From Actinomycetota bacterium (GTDB taxonomy: Bacteria; Actinomycetota; Aquicultoria; Subteraquimicrobiales; UBA9087), in NCBI GenBank assembly GCA_030019215.1, contig JASEEZ010000003.1, positions 12,109-76,108 of the forward strand: a stretch of 64,000 nucleotides of DNA. The letters are read 5' to 3'. A model generated the notes under the pieces. That model ran no database searches and was not told the DNA's origin. It saw only the letters and a program-made list of their open reading frames with translations. Positions 4,282 through 61,380 of this stretch are shown here, in pieces. The stretch's first letter is position 1; every line of letters starts with the position of its first letter. A program made the translations under genes and the position numbers.

Positions 4282-5797
4282 GGTGAGGAGATTATCCCCG
4301 ATCGATCAAGTTTATCTGGTCATCCGCTTCTCGAGCATCCTTGTGATCTGGCTTGCTTTCGGTCTCGGTCGCTTCCCACCTGAGATCCCACGGCTGTTTG
4401 CCTGGCTTCTACCATCCATTTTTACCCTCTACAGTGCCATTTTTGCTCTCTCACTGGGGTTGCTTCCAAGGCATCACCGACTCTTATATCTGATCGTCTT
4501 GCCGTTTGACCTCTTCTGTCTGACCTTTGCGGTCTACTTCACGGGTGGGGCCGATAGCCCATTCTACGTGGGCTACTTCATCTTGGCCAGCATCTATGCC
4601 CTTTGCTTCAAGGCTAGCTTGGGTATAGCTGTCGGATTTTCCTCAGCTGCCCTTTTTTCCCTGGGTAGCCTGAGGGAGCTTCCCACATCGGGCTGGGCCG
4701 ATCTGGGCGTCAAGACCAGTCTCCTCGTGGGAATGACCATCCTTCTGGCCATGATAACCGGAACCGAAAGGATGGAGAGGGAGGAGATAAGGAGGCTTAA
4801 CCTTATTCTTTCGGAGAAGAACGAGGAGCTTTCCAGGAAGGTGACAGAGCTCAACGCCATCTCCGGAATGGCCATGGCCATTCACTCCACACTGGACGTC
4901 GACGCCCTCACCAAGTTGACACTGAATCTGCTCAAGAAGGTGCTGAATTTGGGTGCTTGCTCCTTAATGATGATTGAGAAGAAAACCGGACAGATCCTTT
5001 TCTCGGCTACGGAGAGCTTGTCGAAGGAGGAGGCCAAAAAGGCTCTCTCCGAGGAGATAGCCAAGGGCATTTTATCGGGCAGGGAACAAAAGGTTGCCGA
5101 CTATGAACAGCTGAGCTTCTTCAGATGCATTCCTCTTCTTCACAGAGAGAACATAGTAGCTGCTCTTTGCACCGACTCCAAGGCCCTCGATGACATTTCC
5201 TCCGACGATGTGATGATACTCTCGGCCATCGCCAGCGAGTTGGCGGTGGCGATAGAAAATGTCCGCCTCTACGAGTTGACCAAAAAGCTTTCCGTAACCG
5301 ATGAGCTCACCGGTCTTTACAACTACCGACATCTCCAGCAGAGGCTAGAAAGCGAGCTCGAACGAGCGGAGCGCTACGTTCATCCTCTCTCCCTGATCAT
5401 GATAGATGTGGATGATTTTAAGTTGTATAACGATACTTACGGACATGTTCAGGGTGACTCTGTCCTGGCGAAAGTGGCTCGGATAATAAAAGGTAGCTGT
5501 CGGGAGTTGGATGTGGTGGCCAGATATGGAGGAGAGGAGTTTGCTATAATTTTGCCAGAAACTGACAGTTCCGGTGCTTTTGTGGTGGCGGAGAAGGTCA
5601 GGGAGGCGGTAGCCGAGCATAAGTTTTTGGGCCGGGATGGCCAAAGGGATGCTCGACTGAGTGTGAGTCTTGGAATAGCCAGTTACCCGGTTCACGCGGC
5701 TGATCTTGAGGGTTTGGTTAAAGAGGCGGATAATGCTCTTTACAGAGCCAAGACTGGGGGCCGAAACAGAATCTGCAAACCGGGCGAGGAGGGATGA
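4274..5797 (+). CDS. membrane-anchored GAF-GGDEF diguanylate cyclase
   Basis: 507 aa. About 5 N-terminal TM helices, a GAF domain, and a GGDEF domain with 'RYGGEEFAIILPETD' and the RxxD-like region. GTG start at 4274 overlaps the DUF4446 stop. Confidence 0.75.
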   Translation: MFRVRRLSPIDQVYLVIRFSSILVIWLAFGLGRFPPEIPRLFAWLLPSIFTLYSAIFALSLGLLPRHHRLLYLIVLPFDLFCLTFAVYFTGGADSPFYVGYFILASIYALCFKASLGIAVGFSSAALFSLGSLRELPTSGWADLGVKTSLLVGMTILLAMITGTERMEREEIRRLNLILSEKNEELSRKVTELNAISGMAMAIHSTLDVDALTKLTLNLLKKVLNLGACSLMMIEKKTGQILFSATESLSKEEAKKALSEEIAKGILSGREQKVADYEQLSFFRCIPLLHRENIVAALCTDSKALDDISSDDVMILSAIASELAVAIENVRLYELTKKLSVTDELTGLYNYRHLQQRLESELERAERYVHPLSLIMIDVDDFKLYNDTYGHVQGDSVLAKVARIIKGSCRELDVVARYGGEEFAIILPETDSSGAFVVAEKVREAVAEHKFLGRDGQRDARLSVSLGIASYPVHAADLEGLVKEADNALYRAKTGGRNRICKPGEEG

Positions 5798-5804
5798 TGT
5801 ACAA

Positions 5805-6641
5805 GTGGCGATAAGGATAGGATACCTGGGTCCCCAAGGGACCTTCACCGAAGAAGCCTTGCTTTCGGCTATCCCTCTCGAGGGCAAGGAACTCGTCTCC
5901 TACTCCACCGAACAAGAGGTCATCTACGCGGTGGAAAGAAAAGAGGCGGATAAGGGCATCGTCCCCATCGAAAATTCCATCGAGGGTTCGGTGAATGTGA
6001 CCCTGGATATGCTCACCTTCGAAGCGAGTCTTCTAATCGAGAGGGAAATAATCACTCCCATCAGGCATTACTTGATCTCTTCCCCGGGCATGAGCCTCAA
6101 GGATGTCTCTCTCTTGATCTCTCATCCGCAGGCCACCGCCCAGTGCCGGGGTTATCTGGCCGGGAATTTGCCCAACATTCCCGTGGTGGCCGCGAATAGT
6201 ACGGCCGAGGCAGTTAAGAGGGCGGCCGAGGAAGGGAGAACGGTGGCGGCCATCGGCACCAGGTTGGCGGCGGAACTCAATGGCTTGGTGATTCTGGACT
6301 CGGATATCCAGGACTTCAAGGACAATAAAACTAGATTCGTCATCGTGGGCAGGGAAGCGGCGCCCCGCACCGGCAATGATAAGACTTCCATGGTCTGCTT
6401 CATCTATGAGGATAGACCCGGCAGCCTTCTCCAGATATTGCAGGAGTTCGCTTACCGGTATATCAATCTGACAAAGATACAATCACGTCCTACCAAGAAA
6501 GCCTTGGGGGATTACTGCTTCTGGATCGATATGGAGGGACATCTGGAGGACGAGGCCATTGCCTCAGCCATCAAGTGTCTGCGCTGCAAGCTCCGCGATG
6601 TGAAGGTGCTCGGTTCCTATCCCAAAGCGGATAAGACCTAG
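5805..6641 (+). CDS. pheA: prephenate dehydratase with C-terminal ACT domain
   Basis: 'VAIRIGYLGPQGTFTEEA', '...TKIQSRPTKK...', ACT domain. I chose GTG 5805 as start (classic 'M-IAYLGP' N-terminus). The track ORF begins at 5706 inside the upstream gene. TAG stop. Confidence 0.75.
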   Translation: MAIRIGYLGPQGTFTEEALLSAIPLEGKELVSYSTEQEVIYAVERKEADKGIVPIENSIEGSVNVTLDMLTFEASLLIEREIITPIRHYLISSPGMSLKDVSLLISHPQATAQCRGYLAGNLPNIPVVAANSTAEAVKRAAEEGRTVAAIGTRLAAELNGLVILDSDIQDFKDNKTRFVIVGREAAPRTGNDKTSMVCFIYEDRPGSLLQILQEFAYRYINLTKIQSRPTKKALGDYCFWIDMEGHLEDEAIASAIKCLRCKLRDVKVLGSYPKADKT

Positions 6642-6756
6642 TGCCGTTACAACTTTAAGATAGTACCGTTACAACCTAATTTGCCTGATTGGTCTTACTC
6701 CATTAGAAAAGTGACCTTCTAACAAGGTAAAGTGAAAATAGTTGTAACGGCACTAG
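6638..6756. repeat. MITE-like element with inverted termini CTAGTGCCGTTACAAC / GTTGTAACGGCACTAG and an internal direct copy (TAGTACCGTTACAAC); copy 1 of 2
   Basis: Terminal inverted repeats read directly at 6638-6653 and 6741-6756. AT-rich interior. A second copy with the same termini is at 22975-23152. Confidence 0.6.
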
Positions 6757-8962
<2,206 letters not shown>

Positions 8963-9167: not shown

Positions 9168-9256
9168 GGTGGGATGGCAGAGTGGTTGAATGCACCGGTC
9201 TTGAAAACCGGCAAGGTCGTAAGGCCTTCAGGGGTTCGAATCCTCTTCCCACCGCC
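9168..9256 (+). tRNA. tRNA-Ser (anticodon TGA), type II with long variable arm, CCA encoded
   Basis: Acceptor GGTGGGA/TCCCACC. Anticodon loop CTTGAAA. T-loop GGTTCGAATCC. Discriminator G followed by CCA. Confidence 0.85.
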
Positions 9257-9466
9257 AATATGTGCGGGGCAAGTCCCTCACCCTCCGCCATTTTTGCGAA
9301 GCAAAAATGTCCTGAGTGAATCGGAGTTTGGCAAAGATGAGCCGAAGGGCAACAGTCCTAAGCAGCCTCGGGGGACAAAACGGGAAATGGACAGTGAGGA
9401 GTCGGCAGTAAATAAATCTTAAATCTTTTTACTCCCGACTCTCCACTAATAAACTCCCAACTTATT

Positions 9467-9559
9467 GGAGAGGTGCCCGAGTGGTTGAAGGGAGCCGCCT
9501 GCTAAGCGGTTAAGCCGGGAAACTGGCTTCGAGGGTTCGAATCCCTCCCTCTCCGCCAC
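9467..9559 (+). tRNA. tRNA-Ser (anticodon GCT), type II, CCA encoded
   Basis: Acceptor GGAGAGG/CCTCTCC. Anticodon loop CTGCTAA. T-arm GAGGGTTCGAATCCCTC. Discriminator G followed by CCA. Confidence 0.85.
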
Positions 9560-9656
9560 ATTTTAGTTGGTAGTTAGGAGTCGGGAGTCGGTAGTAAATA
9601 AAATCTTTATAAATCTTTTCACTCCAGACTACCCACTAACAAACTCCCGACTAAAT

Positions 9657-9732
9657 GCGCTCGTGGCTCAACGGATAGAGCGACGGACTACGAATCCGTA
9701 GGTTGGGGGTTCGATTCCCTCCGAGCGCACCA
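9657..9732 (+). tRNA. tRNA-Arg (anticodon ACG), CCA encoded; the substrate of TadA
   Basis: GCGCTCG acceptor. Anticodon loop CTACGAA. T-arm GGGGGTTCGATTCCCTC. Then CGAGCGC, discriminator A and CCA. Confidence 0.85.
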
Positions 9733-9910
9733 TTCTTGCGTGAAGTTCTCTTTGAATGGTGTAACTGAGGCACTAGGGGGTATGGGGGATTTATCCCCCA
9801 TGATTTAGGGGGTGACAGCCCCGCCGCAGGCGGGGCGTCCTCAGGGGGACTTGTCCCCCTAGGAACGTCGCGGAGGCGACGAGGGGGTTCGATTCCCTCC
9901 GAGCGCACCA
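9733..9910 (+). other. GC-rich multi-hairpin spacer followed by a 27-nt duplicate of the tRNA-Arg 3' end (9884-9910)
   Basis: Three G5/C5 hairpins (GGGGGATTTATCCCCC, GCCCCGCCGCAGGCGGGGC, GGGGGACTTGTCCCCC) nested in a CTAGGGGG/CCCCCTAG outer stem. 'GGTTCGATTCCCTCCGAGCGCACCA' at 9884-9910 is identical to the 3' end of the tRNA-Arg at 9657-9732. Confidence 0.55.
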
Positions 9911-9929
9911 GAAATGCGGTTAATAGTGG

Positions 9930-10121
9930 GTGGTTTGTAGCAAAATTCTGTATGATGTTGAGCCTAGGCTACGGGAGAAACGTTATGGGGAAGGTCTGCC
10001 AAGCGTGTATTATGATTCAGAATCTTATAAAGTTAAAAAAGAATGCTGGAAGAAAACAGGATTTATCAGACGTAGAAGTGTTAGAGAAAGTGGAAAAGGT
10101 TCTTGCAAAGGAAGAGGATGA
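9930..10121 (+). CDS. small hypothetical ORF in AT-rich insert (a 59-aa alternative frame with a CQAC pair also exists)
   Basis: 63-aa ORF in a roughly 35% GC island between the duplicated tRNA-Arg end and tadA. No recognisable family. The coding frame is uncertain. Confidence 0.2.
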   Translation: MVCSKILYDVEPRLREKRYGEGLPSVYYDSESYKVKKECWKKTGFIRRRSVRESGKGSCKGRG

Positions 10122-10303
10122 AACGGACTAAAGTTTTGAAGGGATACCATCATAGCTATTCTGAGGAATCTATTAAACAATATATGGCTTTGCCTACCGA
10201 AATGAAACTCAAATGGTTGGAGGAGGTAAATAGATTTTCTTACTGCGCTTTACCCCCAAAAAACAAAAAAATTAGGGAACTTCTTAGAGCTGGTAAAATT
10301 TAG
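10103..10303 (+). CDS. small hypothetical protein (66 aa, basic N-terminus, helical C-terminus) in AT-rich insert
   Basis: 'MQRKRMKRTKVLKGYHHSYSEESIKQYMALPTEMKLKWLEEVNRF...'. Low-GC codon usage unlike its neighbours. Possibly a remnant cargo gene of an integrated element. Confidence 0.25.
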   Translation: MQRKRMKRTKVLKGYHHSYSEESIKQYMALPTEMKLKWLEEVNRFSYCALPPKNKKIRELLRAGKI

Positions 10304-10315
10304 CTAGGTAAAGAT

Positions 10316-10762
10316 ATGACAGATGAAGAATATATAAAAATAGCTATTGGGGAGGCGAGAAAGGCCGCTTCCCAAGATGAGGTGCCTGTTGGCGCCGTTA
10401 TTGTTTTTGGTGATGAAATTATCGCTCGTGCCCACAATGAGCGCGAGGCCAGGCGCGATCCCACCGCCCACGCTGAGATTTTGGCCATTCGGGAGGCGGC
10501 TCGGCATCTTGGGAGCTGGCGATTGGCGAGTTGCACCATCTATGTGACTAAGGAACCCTGCCCCATGTGCGCCGGGGCGATCTTTCAAGCTCGCATCGAC
10601 CGGTTAGTTTATGGGGCTCCGGACGAGAAAGCGGGGGCGGTGGGCACTCTATACAACATAGTCAACGACGAAAGATTGAACCACCAGGTTGAAGTGGTGG
10701 CTGGAGTTTGCGAAAAAGTTTGTCGAGAGCTCCTGCAAGATTTTTTCAAAAAAAGGCGATAA
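10316..10762 (+). CDS. tadA: tRNA-specific adenosine deaminase (A34 of tRNA-Arg(ACG))
   Basis: 148 aa. CDA-fold zinc motifs 'HAEILAIREAA' and 'PCPMCAGAI'. Confidence 0.9.
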   Translation: MTDEEYIKIAIGEARKAASQDEVPVGAVIVFGDEIIARAHNEREARRDPTAHAEILAIREAARHLGSWRLASCTIYVTKEPCPMCAGAIFQARIDRLVYGAPDEKAGAVGTLYNIVNDERLNHQVEVVAGVCEKVCRELLQDFFKKRR

Positions 10763-10771
10763 AATAGTTTT

Positions 10772-10846
10772 GGAGGGGTCGCATAGTCCGGTCTAGTGCG
10801 GCGGTCTCGAACCCCGCAAAATTTGGCGGTGGCACACGCGGAGCCC
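10772..10846 (+). other. decayed tRNA-Ser-like 5' fragment (pseudo-tRNA) upstream of tRNA-Ser(CGA)
   Basis: 'GGAGGGGTCGCATAGTCCGGTCTAGTGCGGCGGTCTCGAACCCCGC' closely parallels the 5' half of the tRNA-Ser(GGA) at 11218 (acceptor, D-arm, CGA-like anticodon arm). It has no T-arm or acceptor 3' strand. Confidence 0.45.
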
Positions 10847-10882
10847 TGAAGCGATCGGGGAATCTATTTCATAAGATAAGAT

Positions 10883-10973
10883 GGTGGGGTGCCAGAGCTT
10901 GGTTTATTGGGCTGGTCTCGAAAACCAGTGTCCGCTTAGGCGGACCGTGAGTTCGAATCTCACCCCCACCGCC
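10883..10973 (+). tRNA. tRNA-Ser (anticodon CGA), type II, CCA encoded
   Basis: Acceptor GGTGGGG/CCCCACC. Anticodon loop CTCGAAA. T-arm GTGAGTTCGAATCTCAC. Discriminator G followed by CCA. Confidence 0.85.
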
Positions 10974-11217
10974 AATATGTGCGGGGCGAATCCCACCCCC
11001 TCCGCTACCCCGCCTGTGGCAGGGTGCCCTGAGCTTAGCTGAAGGGCGAGATAGCAATTAGTTAGTAGTGGGGGAGTTGGGGGCCGGAGTTAATGAAAAA
11101 TGGAGAACGAAAAATGAAAAATTACAACGTAAAATTAAGAATGTTTTTAAATCCTTAAATCATTCTTCATTTTTAGTTCTTAATTCTGACTGTCAACTAA
11201 CAGACTCTTGATTAACT

Positions 11218-11308
11218 GGAGGAGTCGCATAGTTGGCCTAGTGCGCGCGACTGGAAATCGCGTTGGGTACCAAAAGTACCCTCGAGGGTTCGAATCCCTC
11301 CTCCTCCG
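11218..11308 (+). tRNA. tRNA-Ser (anticodon GGA), type II, CCA not encoded
   Basis: Acceptor GGAGGAG/CTCCTCC. Anticodon loop CTGGAAA. Long variable arm. T-arm GAGGGTTCGAATCCCTC. Discriminator G followed by CTA. Confidence 0.8.
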
Positions 11309-14425: not shown

Positions 14426-14697
14426 TTGACCGTGCTAGGCGGGGAGTCAGCGGTGCCCTGTACCCGCAATCCGCTACAGCGGGGCCGAATTCCTGCCTGA
14501 GGCACTGGCTGTGAGGACCGTTCTTGGGCAAGGGATGCTGAAGGCCGGGTCCTGTGCGACGGAGGCTTGCGAACCCCGTCAGGTCCGGAAGGAAGCAGCG
14601 GTAAGCAAATACCTCCGGGTGCCGCAGACAAACCTGGCTGGAGTCACCTACCCGAGTCACGCTCGTGGTTTTGATGTCGAGGGCAGGTGCACGGTCA
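14426..14697 (+). ncRNA. ffs: signal recognition particle RNA, long (Bacillus-type) form with Alu domain
   Basis: The 5' 'GACCGTGCTAGGCGGGGAGTCAGCGGTGCCCTGTACCCGCAATCCGC' is near-identical to B. subtilis scRNA. The universally conserved domain IV 'GTCAGGTCCGGAAGGAAGCAGC' is at about 14576-14597. The 3' 'GGTGCACGGTC' pairs with the 5' GACCGTGC. It is followed by a T-rich tract. Confidence 0.85.
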
Positions 14698-19883: not shown

Positions 19884-21632
19884 GTGTCTTACATCTCTCT
19901 GTATAGAAAATATCGTCCTCAGACTTTTGGGGAAGTCGTTGGCCAGACCCACATCACTCAGACCCTGGCCAACGCGGTCAAGCAGAATCGCTTCTCCCAT
20001 GCCTATCTCTTTGCCGGACCCCGAGGAACGGGAAAGACAACCACCGCCAGAATCTTTGCCAAGGCACTCAACTGTGCCAAGGGGCCGACTCCCACCCCTT
20101 GCAATGAATGTGGAATCTGTTTGCAGATAATCGGGGGAAACTCCATCGACGTTCTGGAGATAGATGCCGCCTCCAACCGGGGCATAGATGAGATCAGGGA
20201 TCTAAGGGAAAAGATCCGCTTCACCCCGACGGAGGCTCGATACAAGATGTATATAATAGACGAAGTTCACATGCTTACCCCCGAGGCCTTTAACGCTCTC
20301 TTGAAGACGCTGGAGGAACCGCCTGAATGCGTAGTCTTCGTCCTGGCGACGACGGAACCTCATAAGGTTCTCCCCACGATCCTCTCTCGCTGTCAACGCT
20401 TTGATTTCAGGCGTATCCCGATTTCGGATGCGGTGGGATACCTCCACCAGATTGCGAAGGCCGAGGGAATAGTCATCGACGAGACTGTTCTTCCCTTGAT
20501 TGCCAGGCAGGCTCAAGGCTCCTTGAGAGACGCCATTGGGGTTCTGGAGCAGTTGTCCTCCTTTGCCGGTGAGAAGATCGGCCTGGATGAGGTTATCTCC
20601 CTTCTGGGCATGGTCGAAATTGAACTCCTGTTCGAGATCGTGGATATAGTGAGCAGGAGGGATACGGCCGGCGCCCTTTTCTTCGTGGAGAGGTTGATGG
20701 GGAGCGCGAGAGACATCCGGCAGTTCACGAAGGAACTCATAGACCACCTCAGAAATCTCTTCGTCATCCGGAGCACCGATGAACCGGCGGGGATGATAGA
20801 TGCTACCCCTGATGCCCTGGCCAGGATGGAGGCCCAGGCCTGCTCTTTCCAGCCATCCGAGATAATGAGATTCATGGATATTCTGACGGAAACTCACGGC
20901 GAGATGCGCTGGAGTCCAGATGCCAAGCTTCTCCTGGAGATGGCCCTGGTCAAGATGACAAAGCCGGAGGTGGATGCGTCTCTTGATGGGTTGCTGTATA
21001 GGATCGATGAGCTAGAGAGAAAGATCGAGGGACGAGGGACGAGGGACGAAAGTCAGAAGATAAAGAAGTTAGAGGCGAAAGAAATGGGGGAGGTGCACGA
21101 GGTTGAAGAGGTAAAAGAGGGAGAAGGCGCGAAGAAGGGGAAGGTGGAAGCGGTAAAGGGTACAGCGGGTGGAAAAAGAGATGAAGCGACACCCAGCCAG
21201 CAACCAGTTATCGGAAAGCAGGCTACAGGTCAAAAAATAGATATTGCTAGGGTGAGAAGAGCCTGGCCGGTGATTTTGAATCAGGTTAAAGAGAAGAAGA
21301 TATCCACTTACGCCCTCCTTCTGGAGTGCCAACCCTCCTCGGTAACGGAGAAGACCATCGTCCTGGAGTTCAGCGAGAGGGCCTCCTTTCATTTGCAGGA
21401 GATGGAAAAATCTCGCAATTTGAAGGTGCTCTTGCAATCTTTGAAAAAGGTATTGGGCATGGATGTGGATGTCGAGTGCACTTTGAGAGAGGATGAGGGA
21501 CCGAAGTCTCGGGAGACATCCCTCCGGGAAGAAAAGTTAACCGAGGAGCCGGTCGAGCCCCATATCGTCAAGCTGGTTCAGGATAGTTTCGGAGCAGAGA
21601 TAATCGAGGAAGTTGAATTCACAGAAGACTGA
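19884..21632 (+). CDS. dnaX: DNA polymerase III subunit gamma/tau
   Basis: GTG start. 'YRKYRPQTFGEVVGQTHI', Walker A 'GPRGTGKTT', and clamp-loader sensor motifs. Low-complexity acidic linker. Confidence 0.9.
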   Translation: MSYISLYRKYRPQTFGEVVGQTHITQTLANAVKQNRFSHAYLFAGPRGTGKTTTARIFAKALNCAKGPTPTPCNECGICLQIIGGNSIDVLEIDAASNRGIDEIRDLREKIRFTPTEARYKMYIIDEVHMLTPEAFNALLKTLEEPPECVVFVLATTEPHKVLPTILSRCQRFDFRRIPISDAVGYLHQIAKAEGIVIDETVLPLIARQAQGSLRDAIGVLEQLSSFAGEKIGLDEVISLLGMVEIELLFEIVDIVSRRDTAGALFFVERLMGSARDIRQFTKELIDHLRNLFVIRSTDEPAGMIDATPDALARMEAQACSFQPSEIMRFMDILTETHGEMRWSPDAKLLLEMALVKMTKPEVDASLDGLLYRIDELERKIEGRGTRDESQKIKKLEAKEMGEVHEVEEVKEGEGAKKGKVEAVKGTAGGKRDEATPSQQPVIGKQATGQKIDIARVRRAWPVILNQVKEKKISTYALLLECQPSSVTEKTIVLEFSERASFHLQEMEKSRNLKVLLQSLKKVLGMDVDVECTLREDEGPKSRETSLREEKLTEEPVEPHIVKLVQDSFGAEIIEEVEFTED

Positions 21633-21954
21633 AGACCAGCGGCCAGAGGTCAGGGGTCAAGAGTCAGGGGGCACGGGTCAAGGGATAAAGAACCAGGGAC
21701 GAAGGGTGAGAGAAGCAAAGAACGAAGGGTGAGAGAAATATAGGAACAGGGGGATTAACTTCCTGGTTTCCTAGCTTCCCGGGTTTCCTTGTTTTCATCC
21801 GACAGCCGACATCCATCATCCGACGAGGAATTTTCTCTAAGCTCTGAGCTCTTGGCTCTAAGCTAGCTGACAACTGTCATCTGTGAACTGTCAGCTATTT
21901 CGAATAACTAATAACGAATGGGCATGAAAATTTATGAGTAAAGGAGCGATCTCG

Positions 21955-22299: not shown

Positions 22300-22911
22300 A
22301 TGTATTACGCGGAACCGGTGGCAAGGTTAATCGAGGAGTTGGCCAAATTGCCTGGCATCGGACCGAAATCGGCCCAGAGGTTGGCCTTCCATATTTTGAA
22401 GACCGATTCGGAGGAGACCAAAAAGCTGGCCGAGGCGATTCTGCAGGTCAAAGAGAAGATAAAATTCTGCAAGGCCTGCTTCAACGTTACTGATCAGGAA
22501 CTTTGCGAATACTGCCGCGATTCCAAACGTGATGGTTCCGTCATCTGTGTGGTCGAAGAACCCCGTGACATCGTGGCTTTGGAGAAGACCCGCGAGTTTA
22601 AGGGGCGATATCACGTCCTTCAAGGGGCGATCTCTCCCATCGAGGGGGTGGGACCCGAGGATATCAAGGTCAGGGAACTTTTGGATCGCCTCAAGGGCGA
22701 AGCGCAGGTGGAACAGAGGGTAAAGGAGATAATTTTGGCCACCAATCCCAACATCGAAGGTGAGGCCACGGCCATGTACATCGCCAAGCTGGTCAAGCCC
22801 CTGGGAGTGAAGGTCACCCGTATTGCCAGTGGTCTTCCCGTGGGGGGAGATCTCGAATACGCCGATGAGGTAACCCTGGGAAGGGCTCTGGAGGGTAGGA
22901 GGGAGTTGTAG
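22300..22911 (+). CDS. recR: recombination protein RecR
   Basis: '[33 protein letters not shown]' (HhH). C4 zinc finger '[16 protein letters not shown]'. Toprim domain. Forms the conserved dnaX-ybaB-recR operon. Confidence 0.9.
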
Positions 22912-22974
22912 AAAGGCGTGAAGAGCCTGAAGGAATGGAGGGATTGGCTGCTAGCCACTCTCAGCGGTCGGGGA

Positions 22975-23152
22975 CCAGTACCGTTACAACTAATTTTTCC
23001 TGAGAAATCTAAGCTTTTGTTCAATCTGTTTATTAAAGAAGCGTTCGCTGATATTAAGCCCGTTAGAATTTTTAATGTAAATGCAGTTACTAACATCAAA
23101 CAAAGTAAATTTAATTCTAACAGGCTGAAGCGACAAGTTGTAACGGTACCAG
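22975..23152. repeat. MITE-like element, copy 2 (termini CCAGTACCGTTACAAC / GTTGTAACGGTACCAG, AT-rich interior)
   Basis: Inverted termini at 22975-22990 and 23137-23152 share the CCGTTACAAC core with the element at 6638-6756. Confidence 0.6.
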
Positions 23153-23290
23153 TTATTTTACTATCCAACAAGCTAGATTGCCGTTAATCCATCGAATCCA
23201 GCCACTCGAGGCAAAAAGAGAGCGCTCGGTGGTTTTTGTCTGTATAATCCAGGAAGTATTTTGACGAGCTGAGTTGTGTGAGGTGAGGAG

Positions 23291-30004: not shown

Positions 30005-30135
30005 GCTAAGGGACGAAGGGCGAAGGACGAGGGACGAAGATTTTTTCAGCCGTCATCCGACATCCGACGGCACAAGGCACAAGGCACCTGACATCCGTCA
30101 TCCGACAAGAACTAGAAATGAGTGGTGAAGAAAAA

Positions 30136-37879: not shown

Positions 37880-37996
37880 TCCACTGGCCAGGAACCAGAG
37901 TTCAGGGGCCAGCCTTCAGCTACCAGTCACCAGGTACGAGGCACAAGGAACCAGGAACCAGGAACCAGGAACATCTGTCATCCGACAAGATCGTTT

Positions 37997-39016: not shown

Positions 39017-39077
39017 TCTCACCTTTTGCCACTCGTTCCGAGTTCCGTTATTAGGAATTAGTTATTCGAAATTCGTC

Positions 39078-39215
39078 TGTCAGCTTAGAGCTCGGAGTTT
39101 AGAGCTTAGAGAAAAATCTTTTGTCTCTACGCTCTCTGCTCCCTGCTCTCTGCTTTCCTCGTTATTCGTCCTTTCGCCCTTCGTCCCTGACCCCTGGCCT
39201 CTGTCAACCGTCAAC
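39078..39215. repeat. ~135 bp repeat element, copy A (CAGCTTAGAGCTCGGAG...CTCTACGCTCTCTGCTCCCTGCTCTCTGCTTTCCTCGTTATTCGTCC...CCTGGCCTCTGTCA)
   Basis: About 95% identical to the reverse complement of 54062-54200. The termini are shared with a diverged third copy at 61141-61380. Confidence 0.7.
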
Positions 39216-54061: not shown

Positions 54062-54200
54062 CAGAGGCCAGGGTTCAGGGACGAGGGACGAAGGACGAAT
54101 AACGAGGAAAGCAGAGAGCAGGGAGCAGAGAGCGTAGAGGCAAAAGATTTTTCTCTAAGCTCTAAGCTCCGAGCTCTAAGCTCCAAGGAACCAGGAACAA
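54062..54200. repeat. ~135 bp repeat element, copy B (inverted relative to copy A at 39078-39215)
   Basis: The reverse complement aligns at about 95% identity with 39078-39215. Confidence 0.7.
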
Positions 54201-54258
54201 GAAACCAATCATCCGACCTCCGTCATCCGACATCCGGCAGAGTGAGGAGGAAGAAAGA

Positions 54259-55667: not shown

Positions 55668-56576
55668 TTGGTGTTCAAGATCGTTAAAAAAGAAGAACTC
55701 ACCGCCGATGTTTACCTGATCGAGTTGGAAGCCCCCGACATTGCCAGGAAAGCACAGCCTGGTCAGTTCATCGTGCTTCGCATCGGCGAGCGAGGCGAGC
55801 GCATCCCTCTGACCATCGCCGATTTTGACCGGGCAAAAGGAACGATTTCCATCCTCTTTCTGGTGGTTGGTAAGTCCACCAGGTGGCTTTCCGATCTCCG
55901 GGCCGGGGATCACCTTGTTGATGTCAGCGGTCCACTGGGCAAACCGAGTGAGATAGAAAGGGTGGGGACCGTCCTTTGTGCTGGTGGTGGAGTGGGGATA
56001 GGTGCCATTCATCCAATTGCCCGAGCCTTTCGCGAGGCGGGCAACCGTGTCATCGTGGTCATGGGTTTCCGCAGCAAAGACCTCATCGTCTTCGAGGATG
56101 AGATGAGGGCAGTCTGCGACGAGTTTCATATCTGCACCGACGATGGTTCCCGCGGTTTTAAGGGTTTCGTAGCCCAGTTGGTCGACAAAATTCTTAAAGA
56201 AGACGAGGTCGATCTAGTCTATGCCATTGGCCCCACGATGATGATGCGCACCGTCTGTGATACCACTCGGCCTCACAGGATAAAAACTGTGGTTAGCCTG
56301 AACCCAGTTATGGTGGATGGTACGGGGATGTGTGGTTCTTGCCGGGTCTCGGTGGGTGGAAAGACTAAGTTCTGCTGTGTGGACGGCCCCGAGTTCGATG
56401 GCCAGCAGGTGGACTTTGACCTGCTCATGGCCAGACAAAAAATTTATCTAGAAGAAGAGAAACTATCGATGGAGCGATATGAAGCAAAAGGGGAAGGACG
56501 AAGGGCGAAGTCCGAAAGGCGAGTGAAGGACGAAAAGCGAAAAGCGGAGGGCGAGTGTCGAAAAGTGAAGAGTTGA
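55668..56576 (+). CDS. nfnA: NfnA/SudB-type ferredoxin-NADP+ reductase small subunit (FAD/NAD-binding, PyrK-like, [2Fe-2S]); its C-terminal ~30 aa are encoded by a GGACGAAGG-type repeat
   Basis: 'GQFIVLRIGERGERIPLTIA', 'LCAGGGVGIGAIHPIA', 'CGSCRV...C'. The tail 'AKGEGRRAKSERRVKDEKRKAEGECRKVKS' is translated from repeat DNA. Confidence 0.75.
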   Translation: MVFKIVKKEELTADVYLIELEAPDIARKAQPGQFIVLRIGERGERIPLTIADFDRAKGTISILFLVVGKSTRWLSDLRAGDHLVDVSGPLGKPSEIERVGTVLCAGGGVGIGAIHPIARAFREAGNRVIVVMGFRSKDLIVFEDEMRAVCDEFHICTDDGSRGFKGFVAQLVDKILKEDEVDLVYAIGPTMMMRTVCDTTRPHRIKTVVSLNPVMVDGTGMCGSCRVSVGGKTKFCCVDGPEFDGQQVDFDLLMARQKIYLEEEKLSMERYEAKGEGRRAKSERRVKDEKRKAEGECRKVKS

Positions 56577-58487: not shown

Positions 58488-58691
58488 ACTCTTCTCCAAA
58501 AATAGTGGGTGGAACAACTAGGTGCGATGAAGCCTAAAGAGAACTTTAGGATTCAGGGATTCTAGGGGCCAAGGGGTCAAGTGAAAAACACTTGAATCCT
58601 CGAATCCTTGAACCCTCGAACCCTTCTACGTGCAACTCTTTTGAGAAAAGAACAAGATTAAAAGTTTATCCACTAAAAATGGAGAAGAACC
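58488..58691. repeat. ~230 bp repeat element, copy 2 (same termini as 32187-32436)
   Basis: End-to-end alignment with copy 1. Sits directly upstream of the histidine kinase gene. Confidence 0.65.
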
Positions 58692-61140: not shown

Positions 61141-61380
61141 AAATCAGCTTAGAGCTCAGAGCACGGAGCTAGTGAGTTGATAGTCGTCAGTCGGGAGTCG
61201 TCAGTTTTTAGCCCCCAGCTTCCAGTCGCCAGTTACCAGTCCTCTTTGGTTTTGCTGAAAGCTGGCAGCTGGAGGCTGGAGGCTGTTATTTTTACTCCCC
61301 ACTCCCGACTTTCTATCCACGCTGGTGGCTGGAAGCTGGTAGCTGGCCCCTGGCCTCTGTCATTTGTTATCCCTCATTTG
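61141..61380. repeat. diverged third member of the CAGCTTAGAGCTC...CCTGGCCTCTGTCA element family with a different word-repeat interior (AGTCGTCAGTCGGGAGTCG; GCTGGCAGCTGGAGGCTGG)
   Basis: Shares both termini with the copies at 39078 and 54062. The interior is replaced by other oligo-word tandem repeats. Confidence 0.5.

Follow-up and report, generated by a model that had tools for sequence, protein, structure and literature searches.

Location and structure of the two elements

The window analysed here is one continuous stretch of DNA, 64 kb in length, and belongs to a deep-branching Actinomycetota MAG. Two AT-rich palindromic inserts are located in its intergenic spacers, copy 1 between pheA and serS and copy 2 between recR and porG. 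The determined features of the two copies are as follows.

6638–6641, no strand: left target-site duplication CTAG of copy 1; the TAG stop codon of pheA occupies 6639–6641, and CTAG is directly repeated at 6753–6756
6642–6752, plus strand: copy 1, predicted miniature inverted-repeat transposable element (MITE) of 111 bp; compared with the family it is rearranged, carries a deletion and has one terminus more (nhmmer E=5e-10)
6642–6653, plus strand: outer left terminal inverted repeat of copy 1, TGCCGTTACAAC (motif search)
6664–6675, plus strand: internal direct copy of the terminus in copy 1, TACCGTTACAAC, followed by the usual left subterminal sequence of the family (CTAATTTGCCTGA)
6700–6727, no strand: putative degenerate remnant of a CCCGTTAGA-type hairpin module in copy 1 (CCATTAGAAAAG..CCTTCTAACAAGG), then TAAAG; a weak likeness seen by eye in comparison with L040, L046 and L026, without statistics
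6741–6752, minus strand: right terminal inverted repeat of copy 1, GTTGTAACGGCA (motif search)
6753–6756, no strand: right target-site duplication CTAG of copy 1
22975–22978, no strand: left target-site duplication CCAG of copy 2; a single CCAG is present at the empty site of relatives
22979–23148, plus strand: copy 2, predicted MITE of 170 bp, consisting of the 98-bp family core, in which a 68-bp hairpin element is nested together with its 4-bp flank (nhmmer E=2e-16)
22979–22990, plus strand: left terminal inverted repeat of copy 2, TACCGTTACAAC (motif search)
23058–23125, no strand: nested second-type hairpin of copy 2, GCCCGTTAGAATT...AATTCTAACAGGC, 68 bp, flanked by TTAA (23054–23057) and TGAA (23126–23129)
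23137–23148, minus strand: right terminal inverted repeat of copy 2, GTTGTAACGGTA (motif search)
23149–23152, no strand: right target-site duplication CCAG of copy 2

From its left end, copy 1 consists of the outer terminus, a direct repeat of it 22 bp inward, the putative degenerate remnant of a hairpin and a right half that is shortened. The same double-terminus layout was found in L028, a locus of the sister Actinomycetota lineage UBA9087. The bases next to the two CTAG repeats of copy 1 differ, and the repeat is therefore exactly 4 bp long. A TAG stop codon can fall inside a CTAG target; the target of copy 1 contains that of pheA, and the element therefore follows directly after the gene.

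In the original prediction, which was made from the sequence of the window alone, the elements had been placed at 6638–6756 and 22975–23152. The places were correct, and the extents were too long, as the target duplications had been included. Inverted termini were rightly recognized, but their length, given as 15–16 nt, was overestimated: the true terminus is 12 nt (TRCCGTTACAAC), and the palindromic CTAG target of copy 1 had been counted in. The extra internal direct terminus described for copy 1 is present. Both copies had also been thought to lie immediately 3' of a gene ending in TAG, which is the case for copy 1 and not for copy 2, where recR ends at 22911, 63 bp before the left CCAG. Likewise, the CTAG suggested as the target-site duplication at each end was found at copy 1, and copy 2 is bounded by CCAG/CCAG instead.

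The 13-mer GTRCCGTTACAAC has five exact matches in the window, all of them inside the two elements, and the remaining matches each carry three mismatches. The exact matches of CCGTTACAAC, also five in number, are located at 6644+, 6666+, 6741-, 22981+ and 23137-. When up to one mismatch was allowed, seven matches were obtained versus 1.79 expected, and seven was reached in none of 100 shuffles. The family profile (nhmmer) retrieved copies 1 and 2 only from the 64 kb. The two copies are homologous in their subterminal sequences as well as in their termini. Both were recovered in independent assemblies (Logan, JGI, NCBI) and are therefore no assembly artefacts.

Several other repeats were noticed in the window. 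Intergenic spacers with blocks of degenerate tandem heptamers (GGGACGA, AGAGCAG, CTAAGCT, GGAACCA, CATCCGA) are located at 21014–21059, 21809–21919, 30009–30110, 37896–37990, 39068–39203, 54062–54235, 56480–56540, 58583–58624 and 61146–61359. Of these, 39082–39180 is a 95% inverted copy of 54084–54182, and bases 1–49 of L028 match the block at 61152–61200 at 88%. The blocks are reminiscent of the cyanobacterial STRR repeats, which are also heptameric. At 9168–11308 and 14430–14694, five clustered tRNA genes, the spacers of which are repeated, and a large bacterial SRP RNA were observed, together with an exact 28-nt duplicate of a tRNA 3' end at 9883–9910, which is not called as tRNA by Rfam.

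Empty site and insertion history

To follow the recR-porG spacer, RecR homologues with 93–94% identity were traced to their contigs and the spacers were aligned with the window. Three independent sources, L058 (SRR13124528), L060 (GCA_003491635, UBA9087) and L062 (SRR28264341), align with the window base for base except for a gap of 174 columns, which corresponds to the element and one CCAG. In these relatives the site is empty, with CCAG present once, and reads ...GGTCGGAGGCCAGTTATTTTAC..., and the filled site of the window reads ...GGTCGGGGACCAG-(TACCGTTACAAC...GTTGTAACGGTA)-CCAGTTATTTTAC..., with the 170-bp element inserted and CCAG duplicated. In the case of the Logan contig L063 (SRR22388173), the RecR of which is 100% identical, the copy 2 insertion is present and the contig breaks 54 nt inside it (L063 1146–1196). 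Assemblies break at repeats in this manner, and the break would agree with further copies of the element in that genome.

At the pheA-serS site, relatives whose SerS is about 90% identical have copy 1 at the same place and with 98% identity. Where the SerS identity drops to about 75%, the spacer is only 8–11 bp long and lacks copy 1, and the terminus motif is absent from approximately 60 kb of the sequence of these relatives. The comparison of the two spacers in related genomes, which had been suggested as a check, thus revealed presence and absence at both sites, with an exact empty site in the case of recR-porG. The lineage of the relatives with about 90% identical SerS would have split off after the insertion of copy 1 and before that of copy 2. 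As judged from these alignments, copy 1 is the older of the two, and one of the window copies dates a recent transposition in the lineage. In the relatives, serS is followed by a UbiA-family gene, and a 377-aa ORF with a faint LAGLIDADG match was also observed downstream of this gene (L050 4014–5147).

Conservation of copy 1

Between the window and the relatives with about 90% identical SerS, 2 of the 111 positions of copy 1 are changed, compared with 39 of 279 third codon positions of pheA (Fisher p=1.6e-4), and serS is 87.5% identical to the same relatives. In this comparison, conservation within the 10-kb locus, taken in windows of 150 nt, was highest at 6501–6790. The contrast with the downstream spacer, 2 of 111 versus 6 of 68 differences, was borderline (p=0.055). 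Copy 1 is conserved far better than expected of a decaying neutral insertion. The conservation could be due to exaptation, to gene conversion among copies, or to a recombination tract which also covers the 3' end of pheA.

In the case of exaptation, copy 1 would be a MITE by origin and would now be maintained by selection as a structure acting in cis in the pheA-serS spacer, such as an RNA hairpin or a signal for processing or termination. The low divergence relative to the pheA third positions and to serS and the position of the most conserved windows point in this direction, as does the predicted fold of the sense-strand RNA of copy 1 (-39.9 kcal/mol, z=-5.6). Both substitutions in copy 1 fall at predicted pairs and keep the pairing (G.U to A-U and A-U to G.U), which could easily be chance. 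However, the 3' end of pheA also belongs to the conserved tract over about 140 nt, and a recombination tract or a locally low rate may therefore be responsible; the contrast with the downstream spacer is borderline, as given above, and the comparison refers to one divergence level. Simple promoter and terminator scans gave no site at either copy, which also counts against exaptation of copy 1. Exaptation is for these reasons considered rather unlikely. If the conservation of copy 1 reflects selection, it would represent the domestication of a MITE beside an aminoacyl-tRNA synthetase gene.

The wider family

Further copies were searched for in one genome per species, 596 Gb in total, with two 10-mers spaced 87–147 bp apart, and 45 loci were obtained. 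The commonest family size corresponds to a gap of about 76 bp, which is outside this range, and approximately 25 chance matches of the 10-mer pair are expected in 596 Gb by our own estimate. About 19 of the 45 loci were counted as true relatives by extra shared features, six belonging to type 1 and 13 to a CPR form. According to the MAG labels, the type-1 loci are from Nitrospinota (L015, L039, L040), Thermodesulfovibrionia (L046), Deltaproteobacteria (L029) and UBA9087 (L028). The 13 loci of the related form, with CCCCGTTACAAC ends, were found in Saccharibacteria, Sungiibacteriota and a Parcubacteria-group bacterium. The remaining loci were rejected as long perfect palindromes containing the 10-mer by chance, as iteron-like GTTACAAC arrays, or as chance matches.

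The GTTACAAC arrays form an observation of their own. In four or five MAGs that are unrelated to one another, large primase-like genes have inverted arrays of these tandem 8-mers at their 3' end or shortly beyond it (L005 2404–2630, L019 4705–4833, L030 1309–1440, L035 750–870, L009 3649–4498). The genes encode either Toprim or PriCT with DUF3631, or a BT4734-like N-terminal domain with DUF5906. The arrays look like iterons or the replication origin of an integrative or plasmid-like element separate from the MITE.

JGI metagenome contigs were scanned with a 19-base left-end pattern, the right end not being required. All 18 loci detected were MITE-sized, 98–132 bp. In total, 26 distinct copies of 98–170 bp were collected, the two of the window and 24 others, in agreement with the expectation of further copies in the original prediction. 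The aligned family core is about 100 bp long and non-coding, TRCCGTTACAACTAATT...(AT-rich)...CAAGTTGTAACGGYA, and in both window copies and the 24 others it is bounded by 12-nt inverted termini, 5'-TRCCGTTACAAC...GTTGTAACGGYA-3'. An element contains as many as four or five occurrences of the motif CCGTTA.

The metagenomes Ga0184631 and Ga0184616 contain six loci each, at least one pair of which (L064/L074) is the same site in both. Two copies are present within one Nitrospinota MAG (JACQEW01), as in the 64-kb window. The copies sit beside unrelated genes in many genomes and in either orientation relative to their neighbours. Copy 2 and L028 share an 83-bp BLAST alignment with 98.8% identity.

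No conserved open reading frame was open across most copies of the family. A GTG-initiated ORF of 89 aa reads through all of copy 2 (window 22918–23187); it is probably spurious and was judged non-coding, since most members of the family have this frame closed. The full-text literature search for the terminal and hairpin motifs gave only unrelated primers and shRNAs, and keyword searches on MITEs, CTAG and CPR yielded nothing pertinent. The family is one for which no Rfam, plasmid or literature match was found; the feature itself is of an ordinary kind.

Target duplication and target choice

Direct repeats of 4 bp flank the copies, perfectly in 22 of 26 cases and with one mismatch in the other four. 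The original prediction had named CTAG or TA as possible duplicated flanks; duplications of 4 bp with CTAG as the commonest were found, and not of TA. Since the repeats include the non-palindromic tetramers CTCG, CGAG, TTAG, CTAA, CCAG, TTCA and CTTG, an outward extension of the inverted repeat does not explain them, and they are true duplications. The targets reconstructed from the 22 perfect cases have C in 19, T in 19, A in 18 and G in 18 at the successive positions, resulting in the consensus CTAG, and the flanks outside the tetramer are unconstrained. IS5 duplicates a 4-bp target 5'-YTAR-3' (PMC5009759). This pattern fits 15 of the 22 duplications, ten of which are CTAG, and the other seven are non-YTAR. 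TTAA, which is also a YTAR site, was never seen among the type-1 target duplications.

A different register would be obtained if the family were of the IS630/Tc1 type, duplicating only the TA within a CTAG target and having termini of the form GTRCC...GGYAC. CTAG is the classical IS630 target, and a 2-bp register is as compatible as a 4-bp one with copy 1 and with the empty site at copy 2. However, the flanks TTAG/TTAG (L040, L079), CTAA/CTAA (L029, L076, L077), TTCA/TTCA (L069) and CTTG/CTTG (L080) would each need matched changes of the end base and the outer flank, while a 4-bp duplication explains them directly. In addition, the central dinucleotide is not always TA (CGAG, CTCG, CCAG). The 2-bp register is therefore very unlikely, and the duplication is read here as 4 bp.

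Predicted RNA folding and possible protein binding

The predicted single-strand folds are strong for copy 2 (z=-4.4) as well as for copy 1, and hairpin modules recur across phyla, as would be expected of a structured non-coding RNA gene or a riboswitch-like element that is not mobile DNA. The fold energy originates mainly from the inverted termini, however, and the terminal helix tolerates A.C as often as G.U: at terminal position 2 of the oriented alignment, five A.C and five G.T mismatches were counted. The lack of strand bias at this position is what a protein-binding site in double-stranded DNA would show, and speaks less for an RNA helix under selection. The copies are found in either orientation relative to the neighbouring genes, and target duplications and an empty site are present. 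Rfam gave no match at the gathering threshold over the window, and at E<=10 only chance miRNA-type matches (E>0.1) were obtained with two family members, L026 and L040. An RNA gene as the sole explanation is, on this evidence, extremely improbable.

A palindromic operator or other protein-binding site conserved at orthologous positions, which the original prediction had named as its refuting alternative and to which the inverted 12-mer pair and the recurring CCGTTA would correspond, can practically be dismissed, since the element is absent from the orthologous recR-porG site of close relatives, is patchily distributed beside unrelated genes in many genomes, and has arms 87–146 bp apart.

Nested hairpin elements

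The 68-bp segment at 23058–23125 of copy 2 is missing from L028 and L080, which are otherwise near-identical copies of the 98-bp core. Hairpins with CCCCGTTAGA ends, about 27–100 bp long, form a second, smaller palindromic element type. Standalone hairpins of this type with 4-bp repeats were found in L033 at 7461–7559 (TGAA), in L013 at about 1605–1685 (TCAA) and in L045 at 5192–5253 (CCTG). Others are nested in type-1 copies at a different position and flanked by TAAA/TAAA, namely in L040 (3874–3917), L039 and L072, and the homologous type-1 copies L076, L079 and L069 are devoid of the hairpin. The converse nesting, a type-1 copy inside a hairpin-type element, was detected in L029 (1765–1975). 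Several CCCCGTTAGA hairpins have no duplication, and mobility of the second type is therefore probable rather than demonstrated.

The nested hairpin of copy 2 is probably mobile, because L028 and L080 lack the segment and standalone copies exist elsewhere. Copy 2 would either have carried this 68-bp hairpin of a related type, with CCCGTTAGA ends, or have received it later. The family provides an example of MITEs nested in MITEs.

A broader picture, in our opinion a doubtful one, would place the window copies in a larger, undescribed superfamily of mobile elements, palindromic and very small, of which they are the visible tip, with copy 1 domesticated between pheA and serS. A CCGTTA core may be common to type 1 (TRCCGTTACAAC ends), to the type 2 hairpins (CCCCGTTAGA ends, down to about 27–70 bp) and to the CPR form (CCCCGTTACAAC ends). 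These elements may nest in one another, may be common to CPR bacteria, Nitrospinota, Nitrospirota and deep-branching groundwater Actinomycetota, and may owe their movement to a transposase for which no gene lies between matching termini in the data searched.

Search for an autonomous element and proposed mechanism

A possible full-length autonomous element with a transposase, suggested in the original prediction, was not found in the loci, JGI contigs, plasmids or viral contigs. Among 130 fetched loci, no terminal pairs 0.4–4 kb apart enclosed a transposase, and only chance pairs were present. One of these chance pairs involves the third site in L006, which is located inside a gene. A 1.36-kb candidate pair (L120, L124) was rejected as an insertion sequence, as its 269-aa ORF is conserved together with the flanks, the partner terminus has two mismatches and there is no duplication. 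All-against-all clustering of 526 ORFs from the loci, combined with Pfam, revealed no shared transposase; only the primase-like genes beside the different GTTACAAC repeat arrangement were obtained. BLAST of two elements against plasmids gave no match. In viral contigs, the scan with one terminus resulted in 49 single matches, which is about the chance level by our estimate, and the two matches found with both termini were rejected as they look like chance or phage operator repeats. An autonomous partner is commonly missing for bacterial MITEs, and membership in this class is compatible with such a result.

Both window features are very probably copies of a non-autonomous DNA transposon, i.e. 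a MITE, as had been proposed; the further copies, the 4-bp duplications and the empty site are all in favour of this assignment. The insertion polymorphism with its exact empty site, the duplications, the multiple copies, the target preference and the lack of coding capacity were observed directly. A DDE-type transposase with IS5-like target choice, acting in trans, is presumed from them, as would be any effect on the expression of neighbouring genes.

According to the proposed mechanism, a transposase supplied in trans would bind the termini and probably also the extra subterminal sites containing CCGTTA. It would excise or copy the element and join it to a target, preferably CTAG, cut with a 4-nt stagger, the repair of which would leave the 4-bp duplication.

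The annotation of the two inserts is settled by these results: they are selfish mobile DNA and not regulators or RNA genes. The 12-nt termini together with the 4-bp CTAG-type duplication provide a short diagnostic for insertion polymorphisms in poorly known groundwater lineages. The family is an orphan one.

Comparison with known systems

The Correia elements of Neisseria, RUP, Nezha and ERIC are bacterial MITEs. The window family resembles them in its size of about 100–170 bp, inverted termini, intergenic location, often right after stop codons, and in the long hairpins that would form if the elements were transcribed. Deletion and composite variants are also shared with Correia and other bacterial MITEs, and Correia is not known to have a cognate transposase. 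In contrast, the duplication of Correia, RUP and Nezha is the 2-bp TA, compared with 4 bp here, and their termini exceed the 12 nt of the window family, reaching about 26 bp in Correia; there is no sequence similarity.

In the case of IS1380/piggyBac-type elements, the likeness is confined to the CPR relatives and to hairpins of the nested type, and consists of a 4-bp duplication, termini beginning with CC(CC) and, in several copies, TNAA-like flanks (TGAA, TCAA, TAAA, TTAA). Unlike in that group, several hairpin copies have no duplication, and no transposase was found.

The IS701 family has a 4-bp target duplication, a wide phyletic spread and the terminal consensus ---YACT-Y--YR (PMC2266710). 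The exact 4-bp length of the duplication and the wide spread are common to the window family, whereas its terminus TRCCGTTACAAC does not fit the IS701 consensus and no transposase of this family was found.

The IS5-group MITEs are similar in being small and non-coding, with inverted termini and a 4-bp duplication preferring CTAG, CTAA and TTAG. The differences are that no IS5-family transposase is linked to the window family, that seven of the 22 targets are non-YTAR with TTAA never seen, and that the TRCCGTTACAAC termini do not resemble the ends of IS5, which we take to be GGAAGGTGCGAA... The termini are presumably unrelated, and IS5-group enzymes appear to fit best with respect to the duplication length and the target.
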